Both the position numbers and the translations under genes were made by a program. Below the pieces are notes generated by a model. The model searched no databases and had not been told where the DNA came from. It saw nothing but the letters and a program-made list of their open reading frames with translations. Source: an uncultured Methanosarcinaceae archaeon (GTDB lineage Archaea; Halobacteriota; Methanosarcinia; Methanosarcinales; Methanosarcinaceae). Taken from it: DNA of 64,000 bases. Each line of letters begins with the position of its first letter. Within the stretch, counting starts at the first letter, position 1. This document shows positions 3,905-53,941 of the stretch, piece by piece. The stretch is taken from positions 1 to 64,000 of the forward strand of contig CAVRJG010000041.1 of assembly GCA_963721455.1 (NCBI GenBank). Reading direction: 5' to 3'.

Positions 3905-3940
3905 AAAATCCGGGAGTACCGGAAAAAAAGGATTTGAAGG

Positions 3941-29299: not shown

Positions 29300-29373
29300 G
29301 GGCTCGTGGTCTAGACGGTTATGACGTCGCCTTCACACGGCGGAGGTCCTGAGTTCGAATCTCAGCGGGCCCA
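29300..29373 (+). tRNA. tRNA-Val(CAC), integration target
   Basis: GGGCTCG/CGGGCCC acceptor stem, TCGCC-TT-CAC-AC-GGCGG anticodon arm, GAGTTCGAATCTC T-arm. Confidence 0.96.
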
Positions 29374-29451
29374 CTACTTCTCTTTTTTGTCTTTGTTTTC
29401 CTTATATGGTTTCAATCATCTCTTGGTTTTTAATTGATTGCTTTTAACTGT

Positions 29452-29560
29452 GAGCCCATCCCAAAACCGATTTTATTTTTGGTATCGATAAGAATTTTAG
29501 AACAATTTTCGTAACCGGAAACTAGATTGACTATTGCGAATTGAATTTTGGGATGGGCTC
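29452..29560. mobile_element. 109-bp MITE, 15-bp perfect TIR GAGCCCATCCCAAAA, 3-bp TGT flanks
   Basis: gagcccatcccaaaa ... ttttgggatgggctc with TGT on both sides. Confidence 0.75.
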
Positions 29561-29638
29561 TGTAAAAGATTAGCAAACATATACTTTTTAACATGGCTCT
29601 TAAAATGAAAACGCGGCGTATAAATAGCCACAGAAACA

Positions 29639-31291
29639 ATGAACACTAGCATGGAAAACTTAAGGTGTCATTGCTGTGGAAATGATTTATACATTAAGGA
29701 AATGAATGAAAACGGATATATTTTATTTTGCCCTTATTGTTTGGATTTGGTTCCAATAGACAAAAGTAAATCACTGGATCTACTTAAAAATTATTCAAAT
29801 AATGTAAGAAAGGTTGCTTCTGAATGTCTTAGCTCATTTTCAAAAGAAAAAATCATTAAAGATTTTATGAATTTTAGAGAAATTACTTTTAAAGATGAAG
29901 AAGCTATTAATTTTAACCTAAAACGGTGTATAATTTCAACATTAATTATTGGAGATTGTTTAAAAAATACTTCAGGAAGAAATTATACTAACTGTGTACC
30001 TTATAATTTTGAGGATTTGTATTTCTTTTACGAAAAGTTATATTTTGCTAATAATTCTATTGTTGAAATAGAAGAGGGCTTTTCTAGTATTTTTCCTTCA
30101 TCAGAAAAACTAAATGAATTAATTCCCCAAATTAGAAAAATATCTTTTGAATTTGAAAGAAAGGAATATTGCTACATTCCTAAGCAAATTTGGCAATACT
30201 ACAACAATACACTAGAATTCAGTACTTTATTATCTTCACACTTAAGAAAAAATCATTCTTTATTTAAGCAAATAGAGAAAAACAGGAAAACAAATGAAAA
30301 AATAACGAAACTTAATTTAAAATGCCAAAGAGCTACAAAGTGGCAGAAGAAGAAAATATATAACGAAATAGAGTTGCTTAAAAAAGAAAAAATATATTCA
30401 TTATTAGAAATGATTTATAATGGTTTTCATGCTGTATATTTAGATGCGGAAATTTTTTCTTTTAAGGAACTTCAGGAAATTGACTTAGAAGGGCCAGTTT
30501 CTAAAATCATAGGAAGTTTAATCGCTTACAAAAAAGGAAACTCTATTAGGTATGAAGACAGTCCACTTTATTATGAAATAACTTTTGAGGGATTTAGAAA
30601 AATATGCGAAGGTTGTAATGTAAATGTGGATATGTGCTATGATTTATTAGTATCATCCGAAATGCATTGTAAAGAGTTCCCTCTGCTCATCGAAATAAAC
30701 TCAACAATCTTTATTTGTCCAGAATTTTTAACTTTTATATGGTCCTTTATTAAATTTAAATATAACAGCAAGAGTTTTAAAGATGAAACTGGAACGTTGC
30801 TGGGAAAAAATTTTGAAACTGAAGTAGAAGAATTATTCAGATCGCAGGGATTCAGATTAGAACATCCAATTCATAAAAATAATAAGTTAACAGATAAAAA
30901 AATATCTTTTAATGATAATTCTGGGAAAAATTTAAAGTTCGAAATTGACCTAATTCCATATAACGATAAGTTCATTTTTGTTGTTGAATGTAAAAGATAC
31001 AACTTAAAACCAAATTATATTTACGAAAAGGAGAGAAGACTAAGATTTTGTGGAAATAAAGGAATTAAAGACGAAATTAACAACAAACATATTCATAGAA
31101 TTAATTATATTAAAGCAAATTATGGTGAATTTGGCTTTAATTCTGAAAAGGAAGTTAAAGGACTAATAGTGACATACGTTAAAGAAGAATTTAGCAACTA
31201 CCACGGGGTAGATGTTGTAGCATTCTCTGAATTATCAAATTATTTGAAATCTTTTACTTTAACTTTAAAAATCTTAAATAATAAAAAATAG
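29639..31291 (+). CDS. Hypothetical protein: N-terminal Zn ribbon, C-terminal PD-(D/E)XK nuclease-like domain
   Basis: CHCC..CPYC; GKNFETEVEELF..FEIDLIP..FVVECKRY; very AT-rich. Confidence 0.7.
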   Translation: MNTSMENLRCHCCGNDLYIKEMNENGYILFCPYCLDLVPIDKSKSLDLLKNYSNNVRKVASECLSSFSKEKIIKDFMNFREITFKDEEAINFNLKRCIISTLIIGDCLKNTSGRNYTNCVPYNFEDLYFFYEKLYFANNSIVEIEEGFSSIFPSSEKLNELIPQIRKISFEFERKEYCYIPKQIWQYYNNTLEFSTLLSSHLRKNHSLFKQIEKNRKTNEKITKLNLKCQRATKWQKKKIYNEIELLKKEKIYSLLEMIYNGFHAVYLDAEIFSFKELQEIDLEGPVSKIIGSLIAYKKGNSIRYEDSPLYYEITFEGFRKICEGCNVNVDMCYDLLVSSEMHCKEFPLLIEINSTIFICPEFLTFIWSFIKFKYNSKSFKDETGTLLGKNFETEVEELFRSQGFRLEHPIHKNNKLTDKKISFNDNSGKNLKFEIDLIPYNDKFIFVVECKRYNLKPNYIYEKERRLRFCGNKGIKDEINNKHIHRINYIKANYGEFGFNSEKEVKGLIVTYVKEEFSNYHGVDVVAFSELSNYLKSFTLTLKILNNKK

Positions 31292-32025
31292 CAGTAAATT
31301 GGATTAAAATACTAAATTTTTTCTTAAGACTTTGATTAAAATTTTGGTAGCTTCTGTCATTCATCAGATTTTTCGAAAAGGGCCGGATACTTTTCTCTTA
31401 ATAGTATGAGGATCTTTTCATCTAATTTCACTATCATAAAATGTATTCACTTTGAAAACTTGGTTAGGTGATAAACCTTTTCAACTCCTTCAAGGTTAGC
31501 TTTGATAAGCTAAGCCTCAACAAGATCAGCTTCTTGAAAGATTTGTATAATCAATTTAGGAATCGCTAAAGAATAACTTCACATTTCAAATTCGGGAATT
31601 ACTTTACAATTCCATTTCCGCGAATAATCGTCGAATACGATTTTCATGGTTTCCTGAACTTTTCACTTACTGTTCTTGCCTTTGCATAAACTGTATTTTT
31701 GATAGTCGATAACATTTTTACTCCTGTTGATGTAGAAGTCTTATCAATAAGGCTTTTCTACGCCACGTGATAAATACATAGCAATAGCAACACCATCTGA
31801 GCAAGCACGGTAACATGTTTCAGCACTAAGCTCTGTGTAATATTAAATTGGTACTTGAAGATATGAGGAATACTGAGCCATTTTGAATGTTCAGATCACG
31901 AATTTCCGACAACTAAGTTTTTTGTAAAGCTTCCTTAAATATACTTCTTTCCTTGGAAATGTTTACAAGTCCGTTATCAGCTAAAGTTAAAACTCTAGAA
32001 TTGGAGTGCTTATGGTGATAAATTT

Positions 32026-32534
32026 ATGGCAAAAAGAAGATTGAAGTTTCCATCAGTTATGATGACATTCCTACGAAACTAGCTTGTAAATTTATTCGGA
32101 AAGATTCTGAATTCCTACAGGAACAAGTTATCAAACAAACAATTAATCTGTTATACACAAATGAGTTTAAAGGCCCTCTTGAAGAATTCCAAGAAGCTTT
32201 GGATCATTACATGTTGAAACAGTATGAAGATACAATTCATAAGTCAAATAAGGCATTTGAGAGCACAATGAAATCTGTTTTAACGAAACTAAACATTAGT
32301 TTCAGCCCAGATGATACTGCCGAAACGCTTTTAGAACGGCTAATAAAAAAAGAATTCATTTATAAATATACAAAGTCCTTATTTATGGGTCTACCTATGA
32401 TAAGGAACAAACAAGGTGGTCATGGACAAGGAATAGACCCTAAAGAAGTTAATCAAAGTTATGCAGAGTTGACATTAAACTTAGCTGGAACATTTATTGT
32501 GTTTCTGGTAACCAGATATCAAGAATTGAAATAA
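32026..32534 (+). pseudogene. Abortive-infection C-terminal (Abi_C/AbiJ-like) domain fragment
   Basis: I.KSNKAFESTMK..IRNKQGGHGQG..AELTLNLAGT, a HEPN-like RN-x4-H pattern; upstream frame disrupted. Confidence 0.6.
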
Positions 32535-32696
32535 TTAGTTTTAGTCAATATATGACTCTGTTTCAAAATCTAGTGATTAATCATTGAGCGTGAAGCTTTT
32601 ACAACTCCTGTTTTCAGGCAAGTCTAACTTTTTGGGAGCCAATTAGAGGTTTCAGTGAAATTTTAAGGACTTATGTAGCTTAATGTGCAAAATGAA

Positions 32697-32741
32697 GCCT
32701 TCACACGGCGGAGGTCCTGAGTTCGAATCTCAGCGGGCCCA
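32697..32741 (+). repeat. tRNA-Val 3' half copy 1 (att site), 45 bp identical
   Basis: GCCTTCACACGGCGGAGGTCCTGAGTTCGAATCTCAGCGGGCCCA equals 29329-29373. Confidence 0.97.
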
Positions 32742-32854
32742 CTCTTCATTTTTGTCTTTATTTTTGGTCTTAAGAGTATATAGAACACCTTTTCTGACTT
32801 TTTGAAAAAACAAATTAGACCAGATTATAGAATCCTATCAATCACAGCTAAAAC

Positions 32855-33205
32855 TTACTTTTTATAACCAAACTTTTTATCGTACTTTTTATGATCAATT
32901 ATGTCAAGAACTAATACAATTATTTCAATACCTGAACTTCCTGCTGTAAGCGTGTAAAGCATCCTCCAGAAATTAGGGAGTTCCACTCTAAACAGATTCG
33001 TTATTTCATATTTGGTTTTGTATTCGGCAGGAATCAGTTTTTTGGCAATTGGTTGCCCATAGTGGATATTCTCCTTTAGAAGTTCCACTTTCTGAAGGAA
33101 AGCATTAAGGATTATCTCTTCCTGCTTTGATTCTGGTGCCTTACTCAGGAGAGAATTATATGCATTTGCGGCCTCCGGGGTCAGGATCACTCGAACAGAT
33201 TTCAT
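32855..33205 (-). CDS. RelE/ParE-like type II toxin
   Basis: 116 aa, VILTPEA..NLFRVELPNFWRMLYT..IIDHKKYDK; ATGA overlap with the upstream gene. Confidence 0.6.
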   Translation of the reverse strand: MKSVRVILTPEAANAYNSLLSKAPESKQEEIILNAFLQKVELLKENIHYGQPIAKKLIPAEYKTKYEITNLFRVELPNFWRMLYTLTAGSSGIEIIVLVLDIIDHKKYDKKFGYKK

Positions 33206-33480
33206 AGTTCAAGTCCCTGAACCACTGCCTTTCTCAGGTTTTCATTCCTGCTGTGAATCCAGGTTACTCCCTTAAGCCCGACAGCAATTTTATTGCTCTG
33301 CTCCAGATAGTCCAGAATAACCATCAGAGTATTATGATTTACCTGTCTTGGCAACATTTTTTTGAGTTCAGCAACTGTTACAACGCTGTTAGGGCTGTTT
33401 TTCAGAGTGTCTTCGACCATAAGAATAGTATTAAGAGTTGGGGAAGGCTTTGCTTTATCAGAACTTAGTGCTTCTGCCAT
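33202..33480 (-). CDS. Small winged-helix-like protein, putative antitoxin
   Basis: 92 aa, PTLNTILMVE..ELKKMLP..ILDYLEQSNKI; translationally coupled to the toxin-like gene. Confidence 0.6.
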   Translation of the reverse strand: MAEALSSDKAKPSPTLNTILMVEDTLKNSPNSVVTVAELKKMLPRQVNHNTLMVILDYLEQSNKIAVGLKGVTWIHSRNENLRKAVVQGLEL

Positions 33481-33810
33481 TTATATTTCTCCAGTAGATT
33501 TGTAACAGTTTTAACGTTTCGCTTTTCAGAGATGATTGCGTAATAAAAAGTTATTGATTAATAACTAATTGATATTTACAGATACTTATGTTTTCCGGAG
33601 TAAGATTTTTTGGGTTATTTTAATTTTCACTTATCAGAATATAGAAAAAGTTAGAGTAAGAAAGAGACAACAAACGATTGTTAATATGGCACTTCAAATC
33701 AATTAATGAATTTTTGTTTAGTAACTAATTTTGAAACTTGTCTTTTAACCTTGATAATAAAAAGGCGGTGAAAACAAAAAATATAAGGGAGTAATACTAT
33801 AGAAAGATTT

Positions 33811-36101
33811 ATGATAAGTATTAAACCTAGTAATTTTTTTATTTCTCTACTTTTATTTATATTGTTTTCTTCAGCAAATTGTTCAGGTGCAATTATCAAT
33901 GTAGGCCCAGGAACTTCCTTTCACCCTACAGGCTCAAACGACGAAACTGTTATTAACGCTGCCATACAATCAGCGAATTCAGGTGACACTGTACAGCTTG
34001 CATCAACCACATTTCACATAAGTTCACCCATAATCATGAAATCAGGGGTAACTCTTAACGGAAATGGGATTGGTGCGACAGTAATCTATTGTGACAATCC
34101 TGGCTCTAATTTTGCAACTAAAAATATTATTAACTGTGAAGGTATTTCTGATATTGAAATTTCAAATTTCTTAATTGATGGTGGTTGGGAATCATTAAGC
34201 GTAATGCATGCAGCAAGCAACAAGTATAGGGAGTATGAAAAAGGAGTTTATTTGGCTGGATGTTCAAATGTAGTTATTCACGACTTAAAAATGCAATACA
34301 GTATGGGTGACTTTATTATCTGTAAAAAAAATACCAGCAATGTTCAAGTTTATAATACAGTGTGTAAACCTGGTCATGACAGTTTTGATGCATGGTCAGC
34401 CGGTAATGGAATTTCAATATTTAATAATTGCTGGGGCACTTTTATAAATTCTTGCATTAAAATTCATAATACGAAAAACGTTCAAATTTACAAGAATACT
34501 TTCTATACCGACACTGGTTCTGGCAATGCTGGTGTAGAAGTAATGGGAGGTAATGTAACAGGCCTTAATATTTGTAATAATATATTTTCAACACTTCAAT
34601 TAAATACAATTTATCAAGACCTCAGCTGATGGTGCTTGTTCAGGCAGAGGTACTGTTTCAAATAATATATTCTATAACAGTCCTGCATATAATGGAATTA
34701 GTGGTATGAATATTAAATCAACTGGCAATATAGTAACCAGCTCCTATTCATGCTCCAGGGGTACAAAAGATTATGGATATGTTGCAGACAATGGTACAAG
34801 AAATTTGCCTGTTTACAATGGTTCCGTGGTACCTTCTGTTACTTTTCCAACTAATTGCAGTACAATTTCAACTGTTAACGGATATGTAAGTATAAGCTGG
34901 ACATATTTAAATGCAACCAGTTATTCTATCAATGTATATAATAGTACATCAAAATTCGATTCTTCTCACTTAATATATAGTCTTAACACTTCACAAACAT
35001 CTGCAAATGTACCAATTAAGCTACAATGGATCGTTTGCTATAAGAATCGGTGCACATGATGACGTTCATAATTTGTGGGTATACAACAGTCCTGTAAGTT
35101 TGTTCACAGTAAGTGGCAAAAAATCGGCTACAGTTTATTCCGGTATATTTGGATATTTAACAGATGCAACTACAGGTCAACCTATTCAGAGTGCTGTAAT
35201 AACATTATCAAATAATACGTGGAATTGTACTCAAATTACTGATGTTGATGGGCTTTACCAATTCACTTTGAACAGTGGAAAAGGCACGTATTGTTTAACT
35301 GCTTCAGCAACAGGCTATCTTAACAGTCCTGAATTACCAGTAAATATGACAGGTATAAATACAGAAATGAATTTGAAAAGGACTGAAGCACCTGATTATT
35401 GTGCACCACACTATGTACAATTATATGTTTCTACTGATTCAAATGAGAGGATTCCTGGGTGTGAGGTTCAGATTTATGCACCAAATAATGACCCACGTAA
35501 TGAAAAACCGAATTTTTGTGCCTGGACAAATAAAGACGGTAGAGCAAGTTTCCATTTGACTCAAGATGTCACATATAAAATTGTAACAATTACTCTAGAT
35601 GGACAAAAGTACACCAGCACATTGACACCTGATCTGGATCAATATACCATTACAATACCTTCAGGTGCCACATCTGAAATACCTGCAATGAAGACTGTGA
35701 TCAGTGTAAATTGCACATATAAACAGATAAACAATACAGCAGCTTATATTAATGCAAGCTATTGTGATTCTTCATCACAGTCCAGCAACCTGACTTTTGT
35801 ACTGGGTACTATGAGTGATGGAAAAACATTTGTACCTTGTGGAATCTCAGGTACTAATGACAACGTAAGTAACCCTATAGGAGTGGTAACTGATTCTTTT
35901 ATAGTCACTAACTACCCTGGAAAAACATACACTGTGAGAATTACTGCGCAGTCTCAAACTTATGGTACTGTATGTGATACTGTTAATGTATCATTTCCAG
36001 GTAGTAATGTACTATATGCAGGGTCTAATATGAATTATTTCTGTGTTTTAATCTTAATTATTGCAGGACTGATATTGTCAAAAACTCGTAAGGCACATTA
36101 A
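33811..36101 (+). pseudogene. Secreted beta-helix / carboxypeptidase-regulatory-like surface protein, split by two frameshifts
   Basis: Three consecutive ORFs 33811-34629, 34706-35059 and 35007-36101: signal peptide, pectin-lyase-like repeats, GYLTDATTGQPI..TDVDGLYQF, C-terminal TM anchor. Confidence 0.75.
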
Positions 36102-36231
36102 TCATCTGTGCCTTATTATGAATTTTTCATTTTATGGAACAGTGTTCTGGTGATTTGATTCCTCATTTAATGAGATAGAAAGGTCTACAGCATTTGGCTC
36201 GTCGATAACGGTGCAGATGTCGCATGTTCCA

Positions 36232-36276
36232 GCCTTCACAAGGCGGAGGTCCTGAGTTTGAATCTCAGCAGGCCCA
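36232..36276 (+). repeat. tRNA-Val 3' half copy 2 (att site), 3 mismatches
   Basis: GCCTTCACAAGGCGGAGGTCCTGAGTTTGAATCTCAGCAGGCCCA. Confidence 0.95.
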
Positions 36277-36454
36277 TTTTTTATTATCCTTATTTTCCGA
36301 TTCTAAGTGCGTAAAGAGCTTTTTTCCAGATGTTCAACTCTTGATTCGAGGTCAGCTTTTTCTTTTGTTGATCTTTATACTCGCTTCGAATTGTGAGCAC
36401 TTTTGAAGTCTCCTGTGTTGCAATGTCAAGTTTTTCTTGGAGATTCCTGCCAGC

Positions 36455-36610
36455 TCATCTCTGTATTAATCCCGAGAAGCATAACATTTCAGTTAATATC
36501 TCATCAGGCTGAACTTCTCGTGGATCATTAAGATATAGCTCATGTACAGGACCAGCAATTCTTTTTCCACATCGTTTTGCGTTTTTCTGTATCTTATTTG
36601 CGAATTCCAA
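36455..36610 (-). pseudogene. GyrI-like effector-binding domain C-terminal fragment
   Basis: IAGPVHELYLNDPREVQPDEILTE motif only. Confidence 0.6.
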
Positions 36611-36749
36611 AATAACTGAATTCATCGAGCATGAAAGTTTTGCCGTTAAATTTTCTGTAAGTTTTACGTATAATACCGCCATGAGAAACTTTTGAAGCTA
36701 AATGAAAGCTGTTAAAATCACATTATTTTGCACTCTTGCTAATATATCC

Positions 36750-37154
36750 TTAAATTGCCTTAACCCACGTCCTCCCATCCCATTTTTTCCAGTGCATTAT
36801 TATCATAGCACGGTTTAACAGAAGTTCTTCTCCCGAGTCAATGAAATCGTTTCCATTCTTGAGCCCATGTTCGAAAGTATATCTAAGGCGTCCGGAATAC
36901 CATTCTAAAAACTGTAAGAATGCTTCGAATTCCGATATCTTCAGATTCTGCATAAAGAATTCAATGCATATTTTTTGTAGCTGGTCCTGTCTCGGTAGCC
37001 AGAAATAATTAATTGAGTTATTTCCGGGATAGAGTAAAACCTCAACTTCTTCAGAAACAGGATTATAAACAAAATCTCCTGGTTGGAAAACCCATTTTCT
37101 TTGAATTTCCTTCGCTGATTCGCACATTTTGATATATTTTTCTGATGTATCCAC
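36750..37154 (-). CDS. Hypothetical protein
   Basis: 134-aa ORF with GTG start and GAGGA SD; WLPRQDQLQ motif, WDGRTW end. Confidence 0.7.
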   Translation of the reverse strand: MDTSEKYIKMCESAKEIQRKWVFQPGDFVYNPVSEEVEVLLYPGNNSINYFWLPRQDQLQKICIEFFMQNLKISEFEAFLQFLEWYSGRLRYTFEHGLKNGNDFIDSGEELLLNRAMIIMHWKKWDGRTWVKAI

Positions 37155-37293
37155 TTAACCATCCTCAGAAACCATCACTCACACAACAGTTAAAAGGCAT
37201 ATCCGAGCTAACTGAAAGTATTCGATCTCAAATGGTTCTTTAATAAGTCTCGCTAAAAGAAGAACAAGCTCTATTTTCTATTCCTGCCTTCAA

Positions 37294-37530
37294 TCATCCT
37301 TGATTCTTATTTTTAAGTTTCTCAAGCAGGCTCGATGCTCTTTCCTTAGCATCCTCAGTCTCCTGCGCATCTATGTCAATGGTAATATCCAGAATGTCCC
37401 CTTCTTTACTTTCAGAGGGCAGTAAAAAAAGAGGGATATTGATTTTAATTGTTTCTTTATCCCTCACAAGCAAGACCGCAACGCCTTCTTCGATCCTGTC
37501 TAATGTAACTTTAAAACTCTCCATAATCAT
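37294..37530 (-). CDS. DUF3006 family protein
   Basis: LDRIEEGVAVL..LP..KEGDIL..ETEDAKER; overlaps the stop of the MBL gene. Confidence 0.85.
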   Translation of the reverse strand: MIMESFKVTLDRIEEGVAVLLVRDKETIKINIPLFLLPSESKEGDILDITIDIDAQETEDAKERASSLLEKLKNKNQG

Positions 37531-38813
37531 CTATCCAGTTTTGAGACCAGCTTTCCACTATCATCGTAGAGAGATGCTGTGTCACCACCGTTGTTCCATA
37601 TAGGATTGTCTAATTGCCAGTAAAGCTCAGTAGCTGAGTTTGTGCCCTTTCCAGTAAATACAGTTACGGTGGTTCCTGCATTCAGGGTGTAAGACAGAAA
37701 CGTATAGGTATGTTTATTGCCTTCATCTTCAATTTTCCAGCCGTTCAAGGAAACTGGAGAAGACCCCGTGTTTGATATCTGAACCCATTCATCTTGAAGA
37801 TTCAGGTCGCTCACATAAACAGTCGATTCCGCAGAACCTGGAGTTTTCGACTCTTTAGTTGTTGAATCTGTAGAAGTGTAAGCTCCGCTTCTACTGGAGA
37901 TAGTCCCGGTTTTTTCAGTTGTTACAGTATAAGTTGATCCGTCTGTTGTAACTATGATTGTGCCACCCAGATCCGTTCTATATACTGTTGAAGCCTTCTG
38001 CAGTCTATCAAGGATCTCATCATGAGGATGCCCATAGTCATTTCCTGCTCCAACTTCGATTATACTTACTTCAGGACTTACAGCTGAAATAAAGGCTTCT
38101 CCGCTGCCGGATGTGCTTGCATGATGTCCGACCTTAAGGATATCAGAATCTACATCGTACCCAGCTTCCATTATGTTTTCCTCTGATTCCAGACCTGCAT
38201 CTCCCATGAGCAAAAACGAAGTGTCGCCATACGTTACTTTGAGAACCACGGAGTTTTCATTCAGCTCGTCGGAGTATGCGCTTGCAGGATTCAGCACTTC
38301 GATATCAACAGCAGGGTCAAAATCAATTGTCTGACCAGCCCTAACTACCTCAAAAGGAATATTCTTTGTATCAATAGTGGTCAGCATATTCTCGTAAGTT
38401 TTAGAAGTATGAGGGTATCCACTGTCAACAAAATGTTCTACCTGGAAGTTGTTAAGAATATCGTTCATCCCGCCGATATGATCAGAATGCGGATGAGTTG
38501 CAACTACATAATCCAGTGTTGAAATTCCCTGGTCCTGCAAGTAAGCTGTGACAACTTTTCCCTGGTCACTTTCTCCTGAGTCAACTAACATGGATTTTCC
38601 ATCAATCTCCAGGAGGATTGAGTCTCCTTGACCAACATCCAGGAAATGCACTGTAAGGTTCTGGCCTGATTGAGTGACGGTATTTTGAGTAGTTGTAGGA
38701 CTCGTTTGTTCCGAAGCTGTTTCAAAAGGAGTTTCTTTTGGATCTGTACATCCGGCTGCAATGAGTACCAGGGTCAGGCAGAAGATTGTGGCAGTCAGTT
38801 GTGAGGGTTTCAT
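37527..38813 (-). CDS. ComEC-type metallo-beta-lactamase lipoprotein with C-terminal lamin-tail domain
   Basis: Lipobox IAAGC; FLDVGQGDS, THPHSDHIGG, NENSVV, GDA, KVGHH, YGHPH; EWVQI.N..LNGWKI..IWNNGGD. Confidence 0.9.
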   Translation of the reverse strand: MKPSQLTATIFCLTLVLIAAGCTDPKETPFETASEQTSPTTTQNTVTQSGQNLTVHFLDVGQGDSILLEIDGKSMLVDSGESDQGKVVTAYLQDQGISTLDYVVATHPHSDHIGGMNDILNNFQVEHFVDSGYPHTSKTYENMLTTIDTKNIPFEVVRAGQTIDFDPAVDIEVLNPASAYSDELNENSVVLKVTYGDTSFLLMGDAGLESEENIMEAGYDVDSDILKVGHHASTSGSGEAFISAVSPEVSIIEVGAGNDYGHPHDEILDRLQKASTVYRTDLGGTIIVTTDGSTYTVTTEKTGTISSRSGAYTSTDSTTKESKTPGSAESTVYVSDLNLQDEWVQISNTGSSPVSLNGWKIEDEGNKHTYTFLSYTLNAGTTVTVFTGKGTNSATELYWQLDNPIWNNGGDTASLYDDSGKLVSKLDR

Positions 38814-39292: not shown

Positions 39293-39323
39293 GAGGTCCT
39301 GAGTTCGAATCTCAGCGGGCCCA
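39293..39323 (+). repeat. tRNA-Val 3' copy 3 (att site), 31 bp identical
   Basis: GAGGTCCTGAGTTCGAATCTCAGCGGGCCCA, followed by CCTACTTCTCTTTTTTGTC resembling the flank of the intact tRNA. Confidence 0.95.
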
Positions 39324-39803
39324 CCTACTTCTCTTTTTTGTCATTATTTCCTGATTCTAAGAAAACATATACCTCTTTTTCTAATGCTTTAATCAGTGCT
39401 TCAAGGTTAGATTTTTTTCTTCTGGTTGTGCAACTTTGTTCGCCATTAAACTCTTCATCAAGGGAAAGCGCATAAATAGGCTTTGTACTCTATATAGTTA
39501 TTGTTATATCTATATAGTTATATTGAAAAATGTGGGCTTAATGCCTCTATTGACAGATTGTAAGCTTTATAGATATTATTTAGGTAAACGGGACTTTAAA
39601 AGTCCTCTTAATCAGATAGCTCTTTTTGATGTGTAAGTGAATAAATAAACGCCTGTTTTATCCCGAAATAATTTCTCTCTTTGAAATTCTTATCTTACAA
39701 TTATACTCAGGTACAGACGATGAACACAAGCCCCTGATATACTATTGAAAATTTATTTATGTGTTGGAGTTTATATTATAGGATTAAAGGATTATAGGAG
39801 ATA

Positions 39804-39995
39804 ATGCGAATGGATGCAGCAACACAACATAAAATAGATGATAAACTGAAAGCCATACAGGCGAATGAGAAGAAGATAAGGGACGAGACTAAGAAAAAGG
39901 GCGAAGCTGAGAAAAAGATAAAAGAGTACAATGCAGCTAATGGTGTGCTTAGAAAAGAAATCAGTAAGTTAAAGGAAGAATCGAGCAAGAAGTGA
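39804..39995 (+). CDS. Small Lys/Glu-rich coiled-coil protein
   Basis: 63 aa; GGAG SD; shares an upstream element with the ORF at 40414. Confidence 0.6.
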   Translation: MRMDAATQHKIDDKLKAIQANEKKIRDETKKKGEAEKKIKEYNAANGVLRKEISKLKEESSKK

Positions 39996-40413
39996 TAAAC
40001 AGGCTAAGCTTCAGTTAAGTAACTCCCCAAACCGCAAACTGGCAGGCAGGCATCATAAGTAATTAATCAAACATAATAACGTATTTACATATGTAAGTCG
40101 TATCATTATTCATGAAACTTGTCGATTTTTCTAATAAGTATAATAATTTTAAAACCCGGCTTGATGTTAATGTAACTTCGCTCAGTAACCATTTCAGTGA
40201 CTCCCATAATGTCGAAACACTTGGTGTTACGCTAGCTACTGTGGGTATATTATGTTATTACATTCTTCAAAAAATTCAGGAACGAAATAAAGGCTAGAAA
40301 TAAAAGCTAAACCACAATCAACCCCAAGCCAGCCCTCTCTCCACAATTGAAAATTTATTTATGTGTTGGGGTTTATGCATTATACTAAGTAAAAAGTAAT
40401 AAGAGGTGAAATA

Positions 40414-40656
40414 GTGCAAGCAGTTGCAGAAAAGCAGATAGAAGTCAAGAAAAAAGAATTAGAAGCTGTGAGGAAAGAGTTTGCTAAAAAAGAGGATGAA
40501 TTAAAACGACTAGAGGCAGAGAAGAAAATTGCAGATCATAGGCAAAAAGCGGAACTTAATAAACAGGTACAAGCAATTACAAATGAGTTGAAGAATATGA
40601 GTGAAGCCCTCAAAAAGATGGATAAATCCGTCAAAAAAAGGGAGAGTAAGAAATAG
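40414..40656 (+). CDS. Small Lys/Glu-rich coiled-coil protein
   Basis: 80 aa; GAGGTG SD with GTG start. Confidence 0.65.
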   Translation: MQAVAEKQIEVKKKELEAVRKEFAKKEDELKRLEAEKKIADHRQKAELNKQVQAITNELKNMSEALKKMDKSVKKRESKK

Positions 40657-40920
40657 GGGCTATCTTTTATTAGCGTGCCTATCCCAAAAGACGGTGAACG
40701 TCTTTGCACGTACAACCTGTCATAACGACATACAAAATACCGTTCATTAACTTTCTCATATCTGCACGTGGCCTTCCTGTGTGTGGTTTTTGTGGAGGAA
40801 GATAAGGTTCTATGGATTTCCATAGAACCTCATAGATTTCACGGAATGACATAAAAGTAAATTTATAATTCCAACATAATCTTAGTTTCGGGATAAGCTC
40901 AATTTTAGAAATTCATTATT

Positions 40921-41376
40921 TCATCGTTGTACATTAATATGCATTACTGCTTTGCTCACTTGACCCTCAGCGTTTTTTATTCTTAAATAAACTTTATACC
41001 TTCCTGGTTCTTTGAATGGATGTACAGGGTTCTTCAAAATTGATGTAGTTTTATCTCCAAAGCCCCAGAAGTATGTAAGTCGCCCATATTTCTTACCCCA
41101 TATGTATGGAACTGGTTTCCCGATACTCGTATCTGTGAATCTTATTGTCAATGGTCTATTTGGGTCATGAGTTGCAGTAAAAGCAGCAATAAGATTTGGG
41201 GCAACGACTTCAGGGTTAGATTTAATCGTTGTTGTATCATACATTGTTGTATCATACATTGTTGTATCCGTATTTGTATCGTCATTCGCAAGTGCTGCAA
41301 TTGCAGTCACAGATAATAAAATAATACTGATTAAAACTATACCTATTGTTTGCTTTAGTTTCATATGATTCCCCAC
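40921..41376 (-). CDS. Secreted PKD-domain protein
   Basis: Signal peptide, DTTMY repeats, FTDTS.G..WGFGD..KNPVH.F..PG.YKVYL. Confidence 0.8.
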   Translation of the reverse strand: MGNHMKLKQTIGIVLISIILLSVTAIAALANDDTNTDTTMYDTTMYDTTTIKSNPEVVAPNLIAAFTATHDPNRPLTIRFTDTSIGKPVPYIWGKKYGRLTYFWGFGDKTTSILKNPVHPFKEPGRYKVYLRIKNAEGQVSKAVMHINVQR

Positions 41377-42023
41377 CTTAAATTTTCTTTATAATCAGTA
41401 CTTACTGTTCCTTTTTTACGGTCTTGCCATTTGTCAATTTTAATTTAAACAATTCTATTTTATATAAGTTATCAGCCGGATAAGAATTGTTGCACAAGTG
41501 AAGATTACAAAATACAGTAGAATAAGAGTATTTTTGCACAATCAGCAGAAAAGGTATATAAGCTGTTAGACATGTGGAGTTAGTTCTGAGGTAACATTCA
41601 ATTCTGTGAATTCATGGATGAAAGGATATATAACTGCTCTCCAAGAAATTGAAAGTAAATATACTCTATACATTCTTAAAGAATAAACTGTGCAGATGAT
41701 TGAGACTCTCATCTGGACAGCAATATTGATATTCTCCGCATGTAAACAGATAAAGGTTTGTTATAAATGGTTGAATACGAAATAAAGGAATTTAATCAAA
41801 ATGAGTAATGGGGAAGGGACTGATCATATACTCCTTTCCCTTCATTTTGACAAAACACATACTAAATTATAATAAAATTAAACAATAAATATAGAGTTGG
41901 TACCAAAACTCATTTTCAATCCTGGTCAATGGGATTTTTAGGATTCCTTTCACGATCTGAAGCTCGATTGGTCACTTGAAATGCGGGAACCGGAGAAGTA
42001 AATTTTGAGTTTTGGGATGAGCT

Positions 42024-43186
42024 GATGGTCCATCTTTATCCGATTGATGTTTTAAAACACCTGAATGTCAGCAGTTCCTTTAAAGTCCATTTTGACTTCG
42101 CAATTCCTGCCTCTCTCGCAGGTGTATTTTTGCATTCAACCCCTCTTTCATCTTTGTACTTTAATCCTCCATGACCTCTACAGAAGTTAAAATGCGTGCA
42201 ATAGAGCTTCATTTGGCTTTCTAACCACTCTTTCGCTTTTGAAAACCCTATTGTTTTTCTTGAAACTCTGTTGTTATCCTGCCTAAAAGTCAGGTTTTGT
42301 CTTTCAAGTAAAGTTGTTGAGATTTCGCTTTGTTCAATGTCTTCTCCAAAGATGATTTTCTTCTCTACTTTCTCAAGTACTCCATTTACTCTAGTTTTGA
42401 CTACCTGTGCATACTTCAAATCATCAGAGGGAACGATTTTTGGTTTCCTTGGTCTTCCTCTTTTCCCAGTTCTTGGAAACTCTCTCAAAACTCCAAATTG
42501 TTTTAATAGAGCTTCCCTATAGAATTTCAGTCCATCTGTGACAAAAAGAGGGATTTTATCTGAAAGATGTTTATCGATTAATTCAACCAGCTTGTCTGCA
42601 ACATACTGTTTTCTTGGACCTATTATAAAATCAAGTATTAGCCTACAACCTGGTACAAAAGCTACCCACATCCAGGGCCCATCGTCTTCATAATCTTTCA
42701 TTCTTGGAACTATTTTTTTTGGATTATAATCCATAATTCGTCCATTTCTACCTTTGACACATCCACGTTCTTCATCAGAGTATCATTTACTTTATCGCAT
42801 TGTTCAGCTGCACGAGCTAACCATCGTTTTACACTGGCAGATTCTACCTCTAAAACATCGGCAATGGCTTCGATGCTCATTCCTTTCATAGACATCTTTA
42901 AAGCTAAATCGATAGTTTGCTCATCTTTGCGAAGATCATGATAAAAAGTGCCTGTATGGTCATTGAATACTTTGCCGCAGTGGCGGCAAAGATATCTTCT
43001 TGTTTTTTCTCCACGGCTTATGTAAGTTCCATTTCCAATAACATTGCCTTGATTAGTAAGCCCATAGAGCTTACAGTCTTTATTCGGACAGGCAACGTTA
43101 ATGAATTGTGGTTTTGGACCTCTTTTCCCCATAATATAAACATAGGATTCTCATATATAATATCAATCAGATACAAATTGACTATC
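42024..43186 (-). mobile_element. Complete IS1-family element (1163 bp) with 8-bp target duplication GATGAGCT
   Basis: Imperfect 28-bp TIRs GATGGTCCATCTTTATCCGATTGATGTT / GATAGTCAATTTGTATCTGATTGATATT; TSD at 42016-42023 and 43187-43194. Confidence 0.9.
42036..43132 (-). CDS. IS1 transposase, two overlapping ORFs joined by a frameshift at an A8 run (~42713-42720)
   Basis: OrfA has Zn finger CPN..C..CRHC, HTH and EMDELW; OrfB has VTDGL..LERQNLTFRQ; CAAAAAAAATAG slippery site. Confidence 0.85.
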
Positions 43187-43560
43187 GATGAGCTCATAAT
43201 TTAAAAATCCACATGGTAGCTTAATGCACCATAAGTTAACAGTTTATTAACAGGTATGAACCGTCCAGCCTGAGCTAATAGATTAACAGTCCACGAATAA
43301 TGCCCTGTTCATGGATTTCTTGCATGTGGTCAGTTCAAATCCTTCAAATTATGAAAGTTACTTTATAAAAAAGAAAATTCCATCAAATTCGTATTTCACC
43401 TAATTTCCATACATTAGCAAACAAAAGCTCATAAGCTAAATTGATTTGGATTACGTCTGAGTTATGTTAGACAATATTCTTACTCTTAATGAATCCTGTC
43501 TATTGATATCGATTTATCCATTCCGTCTGACTTGTCTACTATTTTTGCCCCTTTCTTTCA

Positions 43561-43719
43561 TTCAGTCTTTTGATGCTTTTTTAAGATTCTCAAGAATGCT
43601 TGATACGCTCTCTTTTGCATCCTCTGTCTCTTTTGTATCTCTGGAAATGGTAATATCCAGAATGTCCCCTTCTTTGCTTTCAGCAGGCAGTAAGAAAAGA
43701 GAAATCTTGATTTTAATTG
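43561..43719 (-). pseudogene. 5'-truncated second DUF3006 copy
   Basis: IKIKISLFLLPAESKEGDILDITISRDTKETEDAKESVSSILENLK; DNA visibly similar to 37310-37451. Confidence 0.8.
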
Positions 43720-43998
43720 CCCCATTATATTAGTTTCGGGATAGGCTCATTAGAAAAAGTAGGGTTATATGATAATATAATTGAAATGAAAATTGTAGGA
43801 TGCCCGAAAAATTATGAAGTAATAGAGACAGAGAAGAATGTGGCTGATAGTATTAAAGAAGGAATTATGTCGTTCCTTGGTATTATAATTTTTATATTGC
43901 TGATAATTTCTGTCGCATAAATGATATACTATGGTGCACCTACCGAGGATCTTTTTGAACCATAAATGATGATGGGATTTTATTCCTTAAAAACTGGG

Positions 43999-46290
43999 TT
44001 ATATTAGAAAAATGGAATGTTGTTTCAAATTAGCTACTGGAAATAGTGGTTCAGGTTCTGGGATGATTGCAATTCCCCCAGGAGAGACCTCGATATTCAC
44101 TGTTGCTGAGACAGTATCGTTTGAGGTGTCAATTACAGAAATATTGTTGCTATAATTGTTTTCATAACTGCCCTTGACTACCACGTATACCTTTTTTCCA
44201 TCAGGTGTGACTGCAATTTCTTTAGGATACTTTCCTACATTCAATGTGGTTACAACTTTTCTTGTAGATGTATCAATTACAGAGACAAAGCCATCTTCGC
44301 CAGCCACATATACTTTTGTTCCTGTTGGATTGACTACAACTTCATTGAGGTCTTCTTCTTACATCCACCGTAGCTATAACGGTATTTGTAGCTGTATCAA
44401 TGACAGAGACATAGTAGTAGGTTGTCACATATACCTTTGTTCCATCAGGTGTGACTGCAACTCCCCAAGGATGTTCACCTACAGGTACTGTAGCTATAAC
44501 AGTATTTGTTGCAGTATCAATTACAGATGTGGTATTGCCAGGGATAGAAAAGTTGCCATAGTTAGTCACATATGCCTTTTTTCCATCTGGGGTTACTGCA
44601 ATTCCCATATGGGTATTTCCTACAGGCACAGTGGCTTTAACAGTGGTTGTGTCAGTGTCAATTACAGAAACATTATTGCTGCCACTATTAGTCACATATA
44701 CCTTTTTTCCATCAGGACTGATTGCAACTCTATAGGGATCAGATCCCACTTTCACAGTGTCTGTAACAGTATTTGTTGCAGTATCAATTACGGAGACATT
44801 AACGCCCCAACGGTCAGCCACATATGCTGTTTTTCCATTAGGTGTGACTGCAATTCCATAAGGCCCACGTCCTACTTTCACAGATGTTATAACTAATCCT
44901 GTGGCTGTATCAATTACAGAGAATGCACCATCATTCGTAATGTATACAAATGGCCACGTGGATGAAACCCTTTTTTCAACGCTTATGTTAGCAAGTTTGG
45001 AATTAGTATTGAGTCCATTGCTAGCTGTCAAATTAACTGTATAGTTTCCTGAAGTCTTGTACGCATATACAGGATTTTGTTTTGTGGAATCTAATACCCC
45101 ATCACCATCAAAGTCCCAGTTCCACACAACTGCGTTTTTTGAAAGATCTGTAAACTTAACAACAAGAGGTGCAGTACCGTTAGTGACACTGGCTGTAAAG
45201 TTAGCAGTTGGGATAACTGAATTTTGAGACTGGACATCGATACAAGAGGTAAATAGTCAAATTTGTCCTCATAGACGTTATAAGGATCCTCATAGATTTT
45301 ATAAGGCAGGTCTCCAATCCCATTTCCATCCAAATCCACGCAGATCTGGGAGAATCCAGTTCCATCTGGCTTTGCCCAGAAGTTGCCTCCGATGTAAGGG
45401 CCACCGACAATATTACTGCCTGAAGCAAGTGAACTGTTCCAGGTATTTCCCCCTTCACAAGGTCCAAACCTTACGTTTAGACTATTGTTAAAATAATTAT
45501 TGTAGATTTTTTCTACGACCATTATTTTCTTTATCAAAAATCCCGCACTCTGCACAGGACGTTATTGTATTGTTGATTATACCAACATCACAACCATCTT
45601 CTAATTCAATCCCTACATTACAGTTTAATATTGTATTATTGTCAATTACTGAACTTGTTTGGGCAAGCTAATTCCATAATCGCAGTCAGTAATCCTGTTA
45701 TTACGAATATCTGCCAGCCTGATCCCATTCAGTAATACCAGTGGAGCAATTTGAGATTGTATTACCTGATACTGTATTATTTATTCCACAGCAGTCAATA
45801 AATATACCTTCTTTGCCGTTAGAGATTTTGTTTTCGGCTATTAAATTACCTGATATCTCGGATCCCAGAAGTAATAGAACCATTTTCAATGGTATTACCT
45901 GTCACATTATTCATATCGCCATAAACGTTGATTGAACCGTTTTCATAACCCTTACTGGCTCCTGTTATATTTAAACCACTGATCGTTGTAGCATTAGCTG
46001 TTATCAGAAAGGTACTTTCACTTTCATTCAGCGGTTTTACCTGCACATCTCCATTGTTTGATTCTGACCTGATAGTTAGACCTTTTACATTGACAAGAAC
46101 GTTTTCAGTATAAGTTCCAGACCTCACGATTATTATGTCCCCTGTTACAGAATTATTCACAGCTTCCTGAATTGACACGAAATCAGCTTCAGAATTATCA
46201 TCTACCGTAATTTCCCTTGCTGATGCAGTAGCTGACATGGAAACTAAGAAAATCGAAAATCAAAAATGTTGAAGTTAATCTTATTGAGCA
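43999..46290 (-). pseudogene. Cell-surface protein with NosD/beta-helix, PKD and YVTN beta-propeller repeats, multiple frameshifts
   Basis: Fragments 45846-46238, 45701-45889, 45091-45555, 44342-45127 and 43999-44307 read as one Methanosarcina surface protein (SIQEAVN, GGNFWAKPDG, WDFDGDG, YVTN/VSVIDTATN). Confidence 0.85.
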
Positions 46291-47070
46291 TAGCTTCTCT
46301 TTATTCCTCATTATTCCCCCAAATGAATTTATTTAATCTTTAACAAATAAGCCTTAATATTACTCATTATTCTCTATTTGTATTAAGAAATTGGAATAAA
46401 GAAAAAAAGAAGAGAAAGTTTACTTTTCCAATGCTCTTATAGTTAAACAGGTATCTGAAAGGCAAAAAATATATCTTTCAAATCTGACAAAAACAAGGTA
46501 AATTCACCCGACGGTTAGATTTGATAATTGACTCTCTACTTGATTCTGATTTACTCTGGTTTATTTTTTCCTTAAAAATCCGAGAAACATATTCCTAAAA
46601 GCCATATTATATTCAACCTGAAAGAGGAAAAGGTAGTGGTAATTGATATGAACATATCTGTATCATGCCTGTTACTGGAAACTACCCCCCTTTTGAAAGT
46701 TCAGAATGGAAATGCGTATATCCCTGTCCTGATTATTTCGTGCAAAAAAGGTAATGCCAACCATAGGGGAATTATTAATCAAAATTAATTTTAAGTTCAT
46801 CACTAGATTTTGGCATTGTGTCAAAAAAGCAAAGGATTAATATGCCTCCATGGGCTAATTGTAAGCCATATTGTCCTTTTTTTTGAAATTGGCGCTCTAA
46901 ATCCCTTTTGAGATATGAAACTAAATTAAAGTAAAACTAATTTTGCCAATAATAATGTTTAAAATAGGTCTTTTTTGAGGTCGGGTCGATTGACCCGCTA
47001 TTATTTCGTGTCAGCTGGGACCGGCGTTCTGCTATCGGAACTGCACCCTTTTTCTGAATCGGAGGCTAAA

Positions 47071-47117
47071 TCGCCTTTACATGATGGAGGTCCTGAGTTC
47101 GAATCTCAGCGGGCCCA
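47071..47117 (+). repeat. tRNA-Val 3' half copy 4 (att site)
   Basis: TCGCCTTTACATGATGGAGGTCCTGAGTTCGAATCTCAGCGGGCCCA; 4 mismatches, all in the anticodon part. Confidence 0.95.
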
Positions 47118-47288
47118 CTTTTGTTTTTTCCGATTATAAGAGCTTATAGAGCTTTTTTTCCAACTGCTCAATTCTTGCTTCAAGGTCAGATTTTTCTTCG
47201 GGTTGTATAACTTTAAGTTCACAGTTAAGCTCTTCTTCAAGAGCAATTAAATAAACAGGTTTACTATTTTACTAAGAGGAAAACAACA

Positions 47289-47873
47289 ATGACTGAAATG
47301 ACTGAAAAAGAAAAAGCATCCCAGGCTTTATTATTTAATGCAATTTATGATAAAGAGCTGAATGATGAACGAGATTATTGTAAAGCACTTTGCTACGAAT
47401 ATAATCAGCTTCATCCCGCAAAAATTGGGGAAAGGACATCTTTAATTCAGAAACTTTTTGGCAAAACCAGGGGCTCTTTTCTTATTGAGCCGCCATTTAT
47501 ATGCGACTACGGTTACAACATCAAAATAGGAAGCAATTTCTTTGCAAATCACAACTGTATCATCCTTGACGGAGCAAAGGTTGTTTTTGGTGATAATGTG
47601 ATGATTGCTCCACACTGTGGCTTCTATACAGATGGACATCCGCTTGATGCAGAACGTCGTAACGCAGGACTGGAGTATGCTTATCCAATTAAAGTCGGCA
47701 GCAATGTATGGATAGGCGGTAATGTTGTCGTACTGCCTGGGGTAACTATCGGAGATAATACTGTTATCGGAGCTGGAAGTGTTGTGACAAAAGATATTCC
47801 GCCTGGCGTTGTTGCCGTTGGGAATCCTTGCAGGGTTATTCGTGAGATTATCGATGAAGATAAGAAGTTTTAA
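47289..47873 (+). CDS. Sugar (maltose/galactoside) O-acetyltransferase
   Basis: IEPPF.CDYGYNI, VWIGG..LPGVTIG..GAGSVVTKD..GNPC hexapeptide repeats. Confidence 0.92.
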   Translation: MTEMTEKEKASQALLFNAIYDKELNDERDYCKALCYEYNQLHPAKIGERTSLIQKLFGKTRGSFLIEPPFICDYGYNIKIGSNFFANHNCIILDGAKVVFGDNVMIAPHCGFYTDGHPLDAERRNAGLEYAYPIKVGSNVWIGGNVVVLPGVTIGDNTVIGAGSVVTKDIPPGVVAVGNPCRVIREIIDEDKKF

Positions 47874-48142
47874 TCCTTATTTTTGTGAGTCTGGCTCTCG
47901 AATTTAAATGTAAATCAAAAATATGTGCATTACAGTCTCAATTCAACTACTATAACCCAAGCTATTATCAAAGAAACAAATCTAATAAACCGTTTGATTT
48001 CGCTCTGTGAATCTTTTTTTAAGCTTCTAAATTACTATTTTCTCAATTACGGATAACACTCTCCCTATTTCATACTCTGTTTCTTTTATACTTCTGACAA
48101 TGGTAATATACAGAATATTTTCCTTCTCTGCTTCTATACAGC

Positions 48143-48186
48143 CCTTCATACGGCGGAGGTCCTGAGTTCGAATCTCAGCGGGCGCA
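48143..48186 (+). repeat. tRNA-Val 3' half copy 5 (distal att site)
   Basis: CCTTCATACGGCGGAGGTCCTGAGTTCGAATCTCAGCGGGCGCA; 2 mismatches. Confidence 0.95.
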
Positions 48187-48819: not shown

Positions 48820-49083
48820 GCAAGAACTTCCTGCTTATTGATAGTTATTATAATACTGTTTCTTAATGATTGCAACTATTTATGCGCTCATAGATTATGT
48901 GTCCTGACAGGGTTATACTATTAAAACATGACCTCATGTGTTAATTTTCTTGACATCTGAAAGGAGAGATACAGGAAAATTGATTTGAAATATTCTTTTG
49001 GTACCTTTGATAAGAATGAGGTAAGATAATGTGCAACCTCTGCATCTGCAATCACATTGTGTTCATCGGGAAATTTTTAACAA

Positions 49084-53878: not shown

Positions 53879-53941
53879 TATTACCCTATAAATTTTTAGT
53901 TTACCTAATCCCCTATAAAAACCCAACCCAAAGGTGATACG

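Follow-up and report, generated by a model that had tools for sequence, protein, structure and literature searches.

Five copies of a tRNA-Val(CAC) end in an archaeal genome: a probable tandem pile of decayed suicidal-integrase elements

Introduction

How does a single tRNA gene come to be followed by five copies of its own 3' half, with a different small set of genes in front of each? This question is raised by the tRNA-Val(CAC) locus of an uncultured Methanosarcinaceae archaeon (assembly GCA_963721455.1), situated in the first 64,000 nucleotides of contig CAVRJG010000041.1. This whole stretch is referred to below as the window, its genome as G000, and the five units of DNA that follow the tRNA as c1 to c5. 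A first-pass annotation, made from the letters alone, had described the locus as an integron-like stack of small cassettes without integrase, moved by an integrase acting in trans. We find this interpretation partly supported: it was right about variable units bounded by attachment (att) sites and wrong about the kind of system. The locus is probably a tandem pile of decayed elements of the suicidal-integrase class, similar to cis-mobilizable elements (CIMEs), immobile alone and recombined through the repeats formed by att copies and integrase stubs.

According to the available parts of two papers (PMC8371274, PMC7253208), a suicidal, or SSV-type, integrase has its att site inside its own gene, and integration splits this gene into two parts, int(N) and int(C). 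Once split, the integrase cannot excise its own element unless a complete integrase is supplied. The same sources give family PF16795 as the mark of the class and count five members already known in Methanosarcinales (PMC8371274, PMC7253208). It is puzzling how such elements, whose integrase is destroyed when they insert, can persist and evolve, and the tRNA-Val locus bears on this question.

Copies of the tRNA end and integrase stubs in the window

The tRNA-Val(CAC) gene is intact (ARAGORN; 61.3 bits in Rfam). It is the only Val-CAC gene that ARAGORN finds in the genome (73 contigs, 98.5% complete), and the Rfam scan of 28000-50000 returned no other match. A 24-nt core of its 3' half occurs six times on the + strand, at 29343, 32711, 36246, 39293, 47087 and 48156, where shuffled sequences (n=100) lead us to expect none. 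Both these six cores, belonging to the tRNA and five same-strand copies, and their spacings of 3368, 3535, 3047, 7794 and 1069 bp agree with the first-pass annotation. Mismatch-free cores in the rest of the genome are confined to both tRNA-Val(GAC) genes. Scored against the 46-nt 3' half of tRNA-Val(CAC), the copies are:

29300-29374, + strand: tRNA-Val(CAC), the attB site (ARAGORN, Rfam)
32697-32742, + strand: att copy 1, 46/46, full length
36232-36276, + strand: att copy 2, 42/45
39293-39324, + strand: att copy 3, 32/32, 3' part only, the 14 nt upstream diverged
47086-47118, + strand: att copy 4, 33/33, 3' part only, the 14 nt upstream diverged
48143-48183, + strand: att copy 5, 40/41

The proximal copy is perfect and the distal ones are mismatched or short, as had been described, but decay does not rise steadily with distance from the tRNA. 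Direct repeats of part of a tRNA form the borders of the units, as they do in elements of the suicidal-integrase class.

Similarity between the copies extends 80-160 nt past their tRNA-derived part, and this additional stretch matches DNA that other species of the genus carry immediately downstream of the tRNA (blastn). Searched by tblastn with proteins Int(N) and Int(C) of a full element from one of these relatives (genome G012, see below), the window shows a minus-strand int(N) stub immediately behind each of att copies 1-4, i.e. behind four of the five, together with two short remnants of int(C), one of which lies beyond the inorganic pyrophosphatase gene ppa:

32743-32851, - strand: int(N) stub, left end of c2 (tblastn 32851-32693, residues 69-121, 45%, E 2e-7, part att-coded)
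36277-36359, - strand: int(N) stub, left end of c3 (tblastn 36359-36231, residues 77-120, 52%, E 1e-6)
39325-39483, - strand: int(N) stub, left end of c4 (tblastn 39483-39277, residues 54-118, E 4e-12)
47119-47262, - strand: int(N) stub, left end of c5 (tblastn 47262-47072, residues 54-120)
32580-32633, - strand: int(C) stub, right end of c1, before att copy 1 (tblastn residues 24-41, 89% over 18 aa, E 2e-5 in the window)
48975-49067, - strand: weak int(C)-like stub past ppa (residues 179-209, 31 aa, 55%, E 7e-5 in the window, 0.004 in the genome)

Att-coded residues were excluded by querying with Int(N) residues 1-100 only. Two stubs then remained significant, that of c4 (residues 54-92, 64%, E 1e-11) and that of c5 (residues 54-85, 72%, E 3e-10), and the c2 stub was no longer detected by tblastn. 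The DNA of the c3 stub is 77-81% identical to post-tRNA int(N) DNA of relatives by blastn. No int(N) stub lies directly behind tRNA-Val(CAC) itself in the window. The antisense int(N) expected at a tRNA-proximal att site is thus represented at four of the five copies; an int(C) with its catalytic domain at a distal att site is absent from the window, which holds the two short stubs only.

The remainder of the genome does not make good this loss. The cognate integrase that had been predicted to reside elsewhere in it was not found: the PF16795 profile gave no match at E<=1, and tblastn with Int(C) returned only the two stubs. Because its own genome lacks an integrase of the family, the array is unable to move itself. 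Pfam and profile searches detected no intact integrase, replication, capsid or conjugation gene among c1-c5, just as the first-pass annotation had stated. Nevertheless, the units are not integrase-less by nature. The stubs that begin four of them and end one, missed at first reading, identify them as remains of elements in which the integrase was first split and afterwards largely lost by deletion.

Split integrases in related species

Three related species carry full elements of 15.5-29 kb at the same tRNA-Val. In G012, an insert of 15,809 bp is situated between the tRNA and an identical 48-nt att copy. A 297-aa open reading frame (ORF) with PF16795 ('archaeal phage integrase', E 1.9e-36) abuts the distal att copy, and an antisense 122-aa ORF reads into the tRNA. 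When int(N) and int(C) are joined across att, an open frame results in all three full elements: 437 aa in G012 (15.8 kb), 409 aa in G007 (15.5 kb) and 424 aa in G019 (29.0 kb). Such in-frame rejoining is seen in the elements of the relatives; in the window, int(C) has been lost. The G012 Int(C) also matches the catalytic-domain structures of SSV1 integrase (3vcf, 4dks, 3uxu; E 3e-5), and the window stubs are homologous to its partner int(N). The idea that the att copies are scars of tyrosine-integrase elements is borne out by these stubs and split genes. Among the 59 genomes of our genus set, PF16795 matches at E<=0.001 in 23, and strong matches (E<=1e-36) occupy nine places in seven genomes.

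Could the repeats instead have been left by classical, lambda-type tyrosine integrases that stay unsplit, as in bacterial tRNA islands? Tandem islands at tRNA genes are common, and fragments of PF00589 type do occur elsewhere in G000, for example directly downstream of a tRNA-Thr gene on contig C45. The PF00589 search of this genome gave eight weak matches (three with in-frame stops; longest open frame 294 aa), but none is on the window's contig, and the sequence adjoining the att copies matches int(N) of a split PF16795 integrase. Stubs, frames rejoined across att and the split state of three full elements out of three all contradict an unsplit-integrase origin, which we regard as highly implausible. 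PF00589, taken as the model for the integrase of the array, overlooked the relevant family; PF16795 was the right one.

Two units can be related to full elements. Unit c3 is a remnant of a large element: homologues of its cargo, a metallo-beta-lactamase (MBL) and a DUF3006 protein, are present with 65-75% identity inside the 29-kb element of G019. This homology is confined to the MBL and DUF3006 genes and is uninformative on the origin of the c3 ends. Probably c1 is such a remnant as well; it has a pentapeptide-repeat gene remnant and the int(C) stub in the same order as G012. It looks like the latest arrival, because it is almost without blastn matches in relatives, because contig depth over 29664-32319 is about zero in four metagenome runs, and because its att copy is perfect.

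Unsplit PF16795 integrase genes also exist in chromosomes of relatives, at L034 (G015:C8) 3159-4668, L033 (G007) 2943-5095 and L029 (G025:C61) 3874-5103. The G025:C61 gene codes for 410 aa. All keep a Val-like att core with two mismatches, and two of them lie 0.2-1 kb from tRNA-Leu(CAG), where they may represent a target switch or a non-suicidal insertion.

The tRNA-Val locus across the genus

The array of the window is framed by two genes:

28248-29012, - strand: FlaK-type preflagellin/archaellin peptidase, core gene of the left flank (Pfam Peptidase_A24, Arc_PepC_II)
48322-48819, - strand: inorganic pyrophosphatase ppa, right flank in the window (Pfam 5e-56)

The gene flaK is next to the tRNA in 59/59 genomes of the genus, and 49/59 have a ppa match; where both are near on one contig, the interval from flaK-tRNA to ppa measures 2.7-23 kb. 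We mapped att copies, stubs and modules on stretches of 27 genomes, 26 of which form the census, G019 having been mapped apart. Since these stretches are partial and come from 26 of the 59 genomes, all counts should be read as minima.

At least one extra att copy is found in at least 19 of the 26 genomes. The highest numbers are five each in the window's genome, G009 and G024, followed by four in G001. The tRNA gene is succeeded by an int(N) stub in 21 genomes out of 26. The two halves of the integrase have fared very differently at the 48 att copies outside the tRNA: 30 have an int(N) stub on their right, and only at three does an int(C) remnant lie to the left, no more than 1.3 kb away: in the full elements of G012 and G007, and as the 18-aa stub of the window.

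This asymmetry would be explained in part by the geometry of tandem insertion. A tandem int(C)-att-int(N) junction rebuilds an integrase gene, and only arrays lacking the catalytic half would last. This leaves unexplained, however, why even short int(C) stubs are rare.

Module orders in the mapped genomes were as follows:

G000 (window): c1-c2-c3-c4-c5-ppa
G015: c5-c3-..-c2-att-..-ppa
G017: c3-att-..-c2-att
G022: c5-att-..-c3
G045: X-att-c4-att-c5-att-c3-..-ppa
G024: ..-att-c5-att-c2-att-..
G001: the 116+92 aa gene pair of c2 alone, then att-..-att-c5-att
G002: c2-att-ppa-att

Units c2, c3 and c5 thus recur in other species of the genus, always inside the tRNA-Val array and in differing orders, as the first-pass annotation had anticipated. 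The best followed is c5, present in 17/59 genomes. Wherever it shares a contig with flaK (14 genomes), its distance downstream of the tRNA is 0.1-24 kb. An array of att copies and int(N) stubs surrounds it in 12 of 13 mapped relatives (for G008 and G039, placement follows solely from the distance to the tRNA).

The right flank is itself variable. In G002 (L009, G002:C46, 177-225), ppa is found between att copies; G000 and G002 are collinear to about 49039, after which G002 has an att copy and G000 has other sequence with the weak int(C)-like stub. In several genomes ppa is distant from tRNA-Val, and some have two or three ppa matches. The ppa copy may be a captured unit, itself inside the array.

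Re-ordering and exchange of units

The c2, c3 and c5 units of G000 and G015 are orthologous (84-98% identity) but stand in reversed relative order, c2-c3-c5 in G000 and c5-c3-c2 in G015. Insertions and deletions alone are therefore insufficient to account for the arrays. This speaks against a static field of scars, in which each order would reflect its own history of insertion and random deletion with no later movement or exchange. Integrase stubs and broken genes within the units would suit such a field, as would the strain-specific c1 with its perfect att copy and the fact that most module identities roughly track those of core genes. Against it stands also the phylogeny of c5. In the c5 tree, G024 groups with G000 and G045 (support 98/95), whereas in the tree of the nearby flaK gene its partners are G001, G010 and G036 (clade support 100/100). 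Each data set rejects the clade of the other in approximately unbiased (AU) tests (p-AU 0.011 and 4e-71, for clades named after the trees were seen). The two genes are 0.1-2 kb apart in 11 of the 13 relatives in the trees, and 7.5 and 9 kb apart in G035 and G045. We consider a purely static history improbable.

Do the units then move from att to att? The sole recent horizontal exchange that we mapped is that of c5 between G000 and G024. The near-identical tract (96-100%) covers only 47258-47887, the c5 gene; identity is about 75% in the stub and about 80% at the right end. Because the tract is bounded by the gene and not by att, this exchange was not an att-to-att event. Gene content is modular between att copies, but the borders of this one mapped exchange do not coincide with them.

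An alternative is an integron-like platform, where visiting integrases would use att and the int(N) stub to excise small non-autonomous cassettes regularly as circles and re-insert them at any att copy, the array acting as a gene-exchange site for the whole genus. Units as short as about 1 kb (c5) are att-bounded and take different ranks in the arrays of different species; the wide but array-confined distribution of c5 and its conflict with flaK would fit, and the retention of att and stub with loss of int(C) is what one expects if the moving piece is att-stub-cargo. Potential helpers exist, with strong PF16795 matches in seven of the 59 genomes. Excision in trans by a related integrase is experimentally established for the class, for SSV2 and for pTN3 acting on TKV4, in the parts of the papers available (PMC8371274, PMC7253208). 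However, the window's own genome has no integrase of the family, the genes are on both strands and many are broken, and the one recent exchange is gene-bounded. Moreover, duplication and differential loss could also alter the order: DUF3006 occurs three times in the window, as copies or remnants, and G045 has c5 in partial duplicate. On balance, the platform is unlikely.

We hold it similarly doubtful that the att core plus an int(N) stub of 80-160 nt is a working recombination site and tRNA-Val(CAC) a genus-wide site of cassette exchange. If it were so, suicidal integrases acting in trans would cut out att-stub-cargo units, change their rank and pass them from species to species. Stability would be paid for by the systematic absence of int(C), since an active integrase would re-form at an internal int(C)-att-int(N) junction. 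Genetic tools exist for some Methanosarcina species.

Duplication followed by differential loss could provide the route to re-ordering. In G006 and G057, the DUF3006 remnant is the point of fusion between c5 and the DUF3006-MBL part of c3, and no att copy separates the two, as would be expected from deletion between homologous copies; this, too, speaks against a clean cassette mechanism. Metagenome runs X1-X4 were compared through short contigs of relatives; all 24 listed runs are metagenomes and cover no more than 0.28 of the words sampled. In one contig c2 is passed over between 32746 and 36440, which an uncharacterized part links, and contigs of X3 and X4 join 32578 to 46785.

A probable pile of decayed elements

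The findings are best accommodated by a tandem pile of decayed suicidal-integrase elements, for which we infer the following course. Elements of one family, with an SSV-type ('suicidal', PF16795) tyrosine integrase and the attachment site inside its gene, would have inserted serially into tRNA-Val(CAC) or into an existing att copy, each insertion splitting the integrase and leaving int(N) beside the left att and int(C) beside the right one. Later deletions would have removed int(C) and most of the backbone, so that att, the int(N) stub and a few cargo genes remain; c2, c4 and c5 would descend from large elements in this way too. The att copies (32-46 nt) and stubs (80-160 nt) would then serve as direct repeats for loss, duplication, re-ordering and interspecies exchange of units. 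Either homologous recombination or the integrase of a visiting element may drive this reshuffling. The first-pass annotation had named remnants of large integrase-bearing islands as the outcome that would speak against its proposal; this is largely what we observe, yet att-bounded modularity is observed as well.

Several observations weigh against this reconstruction. The large-element origin of c2, c4 and c5 is signalled by their int(N) stub only, their cargo was not found in the full elements examined, and the c3 stub is weak by itself (E 0.13 without its att-coded part). Random decay does not explain why int(N) persists at 30 and int(C) at three of 48 copies, counts that come from the partial stretches of 26 out of 59 genomes. 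Finally, no clear grouping of the 170-nt stubs by following module emerged: at 89% identity, the G000 c5 stub is as close to a G017 stub in front of another module as to the c5 stub of G045. This also speaks against a clean cassette mechanism. The history is mosaic.

Comparison with known systems

The locus is of the gene-capture type and functionally CIME-like, and it has none of the integron features tested. Archaeal 'gene capture' by SSV-type integrases was reportedly described by She et al. in 2001. Going by Badel et al. (2020; PMC7253208) and a review (PMC8371274), the likeness comprises an att site within the integrase gene, int(N) and int(C) at opposite ends, a tRNA 3' end as target, trapping once no complete integrase is present, and a shared PF16795 catalytic domain. 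It differs in that the window has several tandem remnants at one tRNA with five att copies (up to five in relatives too), that the host is a mesophilic methanogen, and that int(N) stubs have survived where int(C) has nearly always disappeared.

In bacteria, ICESt1 and ICESt3 of Streptococcus thermophilus are said to illustrate CIMEs and tandem accretion. A CIME is defined, in the available part of one paper, as a decayed element whose integration genes are lost and whose attL and attR are kept (PMC5704250). The units of the window have likewise lost integration and transfer genes and retained attL and attR, they are stacked as tandem decayed elements at the 3' end of a target gene, and an incoming relative could in principle mobilize them. 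Unlike CIMEs, they belong to Archaea, derive from a self-splitting integrase and have no conjugation module; mobilization of the tRNA-Val array is hypothetical.

With integrons the array shares short units between recombination sites, varying in content and order among relatives. Here the comparison drawn at first pass fails. No resident intI is apparent, neither PF00589 nor PF16795 having a match on the window's contig. Its sites consist of a directly repeated tRNA 3' half with an int(N) stub and are not attC sites, which are imperfect inverted repeats. Instead of co-oriented promoterless cassettes read from Pc, there are genes on both strands, many of them pseudogenes, at a tRNA-Val locus with neither attI nor a Pc promoter. 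Bacterial tandem tRNA islands are alike in that one tRNA is reused and duplicated 3' ends mark the borders. They are unlike in the class of integrase and in what tandem insertion leads to; here, by the logic of figure 8A of Badel et al., in the part of that paper available, an internal int(C)-att-int(N) junction would rebuild the integrase (PMC7253208).

Tandem piles seem to be new for the suicidal-integrase class, and so does the genus-wide asymmetry of int(N) and int(C). Badel et al. (2020) give no tandem integration among 73 suicidal integrases, five of which are from Methanosarcinales, and in the available text they argue that tandems, never seen, excise efficiently, with a model built on this instability (PMC7253208). 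Such piles are seen here in a mesophilic methanogen, with counterparts in at least 19 of 26 genomes of the genus, and the loss of int(C) at nearly every internal junction fits the instability model. We found no description of a Methanosarcina tRNA-Val array in the literature searched, which did not extend to the supplement of PMC7253208, where five Methanosarcinales integrases are listed with their targets. The locus illustrates how ordinary-looking genes, such as an acetyltransferase, a secreted nuclease-like MBL, surface proteins and perhaps ppa, are fixed and re-sorted beside a tRNA.

Cargo of the units

The genes and gene remnants of c1-c5 are listed below ('no strand' where none is assigned).

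29639-31291, + strand: c1, 550-aa ORF with weak NERD nuclease-like C-terminus (Pfam NERD E 5.5e-4, under cut-off)
31356-31542, no strand: c1, pentapeptide-repeat gene remnant (blastn 72-77% to Pfam-named pentapeptide genes of G017, G025, G009 and G005)
32199-32534, + strand: c1, Abi_C/DUF7014 fragment, 111 aa (Pfam DUF7014 4.9e-16, Abi_C 7.8e-7)
32855-33480, - strand: c2, pair of overlapping genes (116+92 aa) that resembles toxin-antitoxin only in its layout (ORFs)
33811-36101, + strand: c2, surface protein (pectate-lyase-like, CarboxypepD_reg, Big_1) in three ORFs of 272, 117 and 364 aa
36455-37154, - strand: c3, 75-aa GyrI-like fragment and an ORF of 134 aa without known family (ORFs, Pfam)
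37294-38813, - strand: c3, DUF3006 protein and secreted ComEC-like MBL with lamin-tail (LTD) domain (Pfam)
39804-41376, no strand: c4 left, short coiled-coil ORFs, IS4/5 DUF4096 fragment, PKD protein (ORFs, Pfam)
42024-43186 (about), - strand: IS1-family insertion sequence within c4, 1163 bp (Pfam DDE_Tnp_IS1)
43570-43719, no strand: c4, second DUF3006 gene, a remnant (82% to 37300-37451)
43999-46238, - strand: c4 right, broken NosD/PKD/YVTN beta-propeller surface protein (Pfam)
47289-47873, + strand: c5, maltose/galactoside O-acetyltransferase-type gene, 194 aa (Pfam Mac, Hexapep; NCBIfam under cut-off)
48040-48133, no strand: c5 right end, third, DUF3006-like remnant (74% to 43587-43679)

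This content is largely that described at first pass, with three corrections: no family supports the supposed toxin-antitoxin pair, NERD stays under its Pfam threshold, and the surface protein of c2 is broken. Cargo genes lie on the + strand in c1, in the surface gene of c2 and in c5, and on the - strand in c3 and c4, and several are broken. In c1, neither PADLOC nor NCBIfam has anything for the 550-aa ORF. The pentapeptide-repeat genes of relatives lie near int(C) or att copies.

The 116+92 aa pair of c2 has no Pfam, PADLOC or NCBIfam match; it is also present in the arrays of G001, G005 and G024 (91-92%). A paralogous pair lies on the window's contig outside the window (G000:C41:120514-121070; 83-91% protein identity). 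The c2 surface protein is one ORF of 762-800 aa in seven relatives and is a pseudogene in the window, split into three ORFs.

For c3, PADLOC and NCBIfam gave no name to the 134-aa ORF, and the MBL has an NCBIfam ComEC_Rec2 match under cut-off. Two more MBL+DUF3006 copies reside in the window's own genome, on contigs C34 and C45, which have weak PF00589 integrase-like matches. Each of the two contigs has a further island there. On C45 (G000:C45:53400-66106), PF00589-type integrase fragments in frames of 229 and 78 aa directly succeed tRNA-Thr(CGT), and the MBL+DUF3006 pair comes 10 kb later. On C34 (G000:C34:2-9652), the pair is near a 197-aa integrase-like frame.

The IS1 insertion in c4 had been recognized, with a size of 1171 bp; its ends, set by a 92% copy on contig C15, give the 1163 bp listed. 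About 120-140 nt to its left (41885-42024) have many 70-85% matches on C26, C38, C39, C64 and other contigs, and may be a small repeated element of the miniature inverted-repeat transposable element kind. The counterpart of the NosD/PKD/YVTN gene in G045 has longer ORFs, of 480 and 372 aa.

In c5, a stretch of 178 nt (47888-48065) is single-copy in its own genome and missing from G015, G022, G035 and G045, and contigs of all four metagenome runs skip it. Other direct repeats of the window, unrelated to the att array, pair 11391-11899 with 13580-14085 (69-71%) and 53580-53891 with 55138-55448 (84%).

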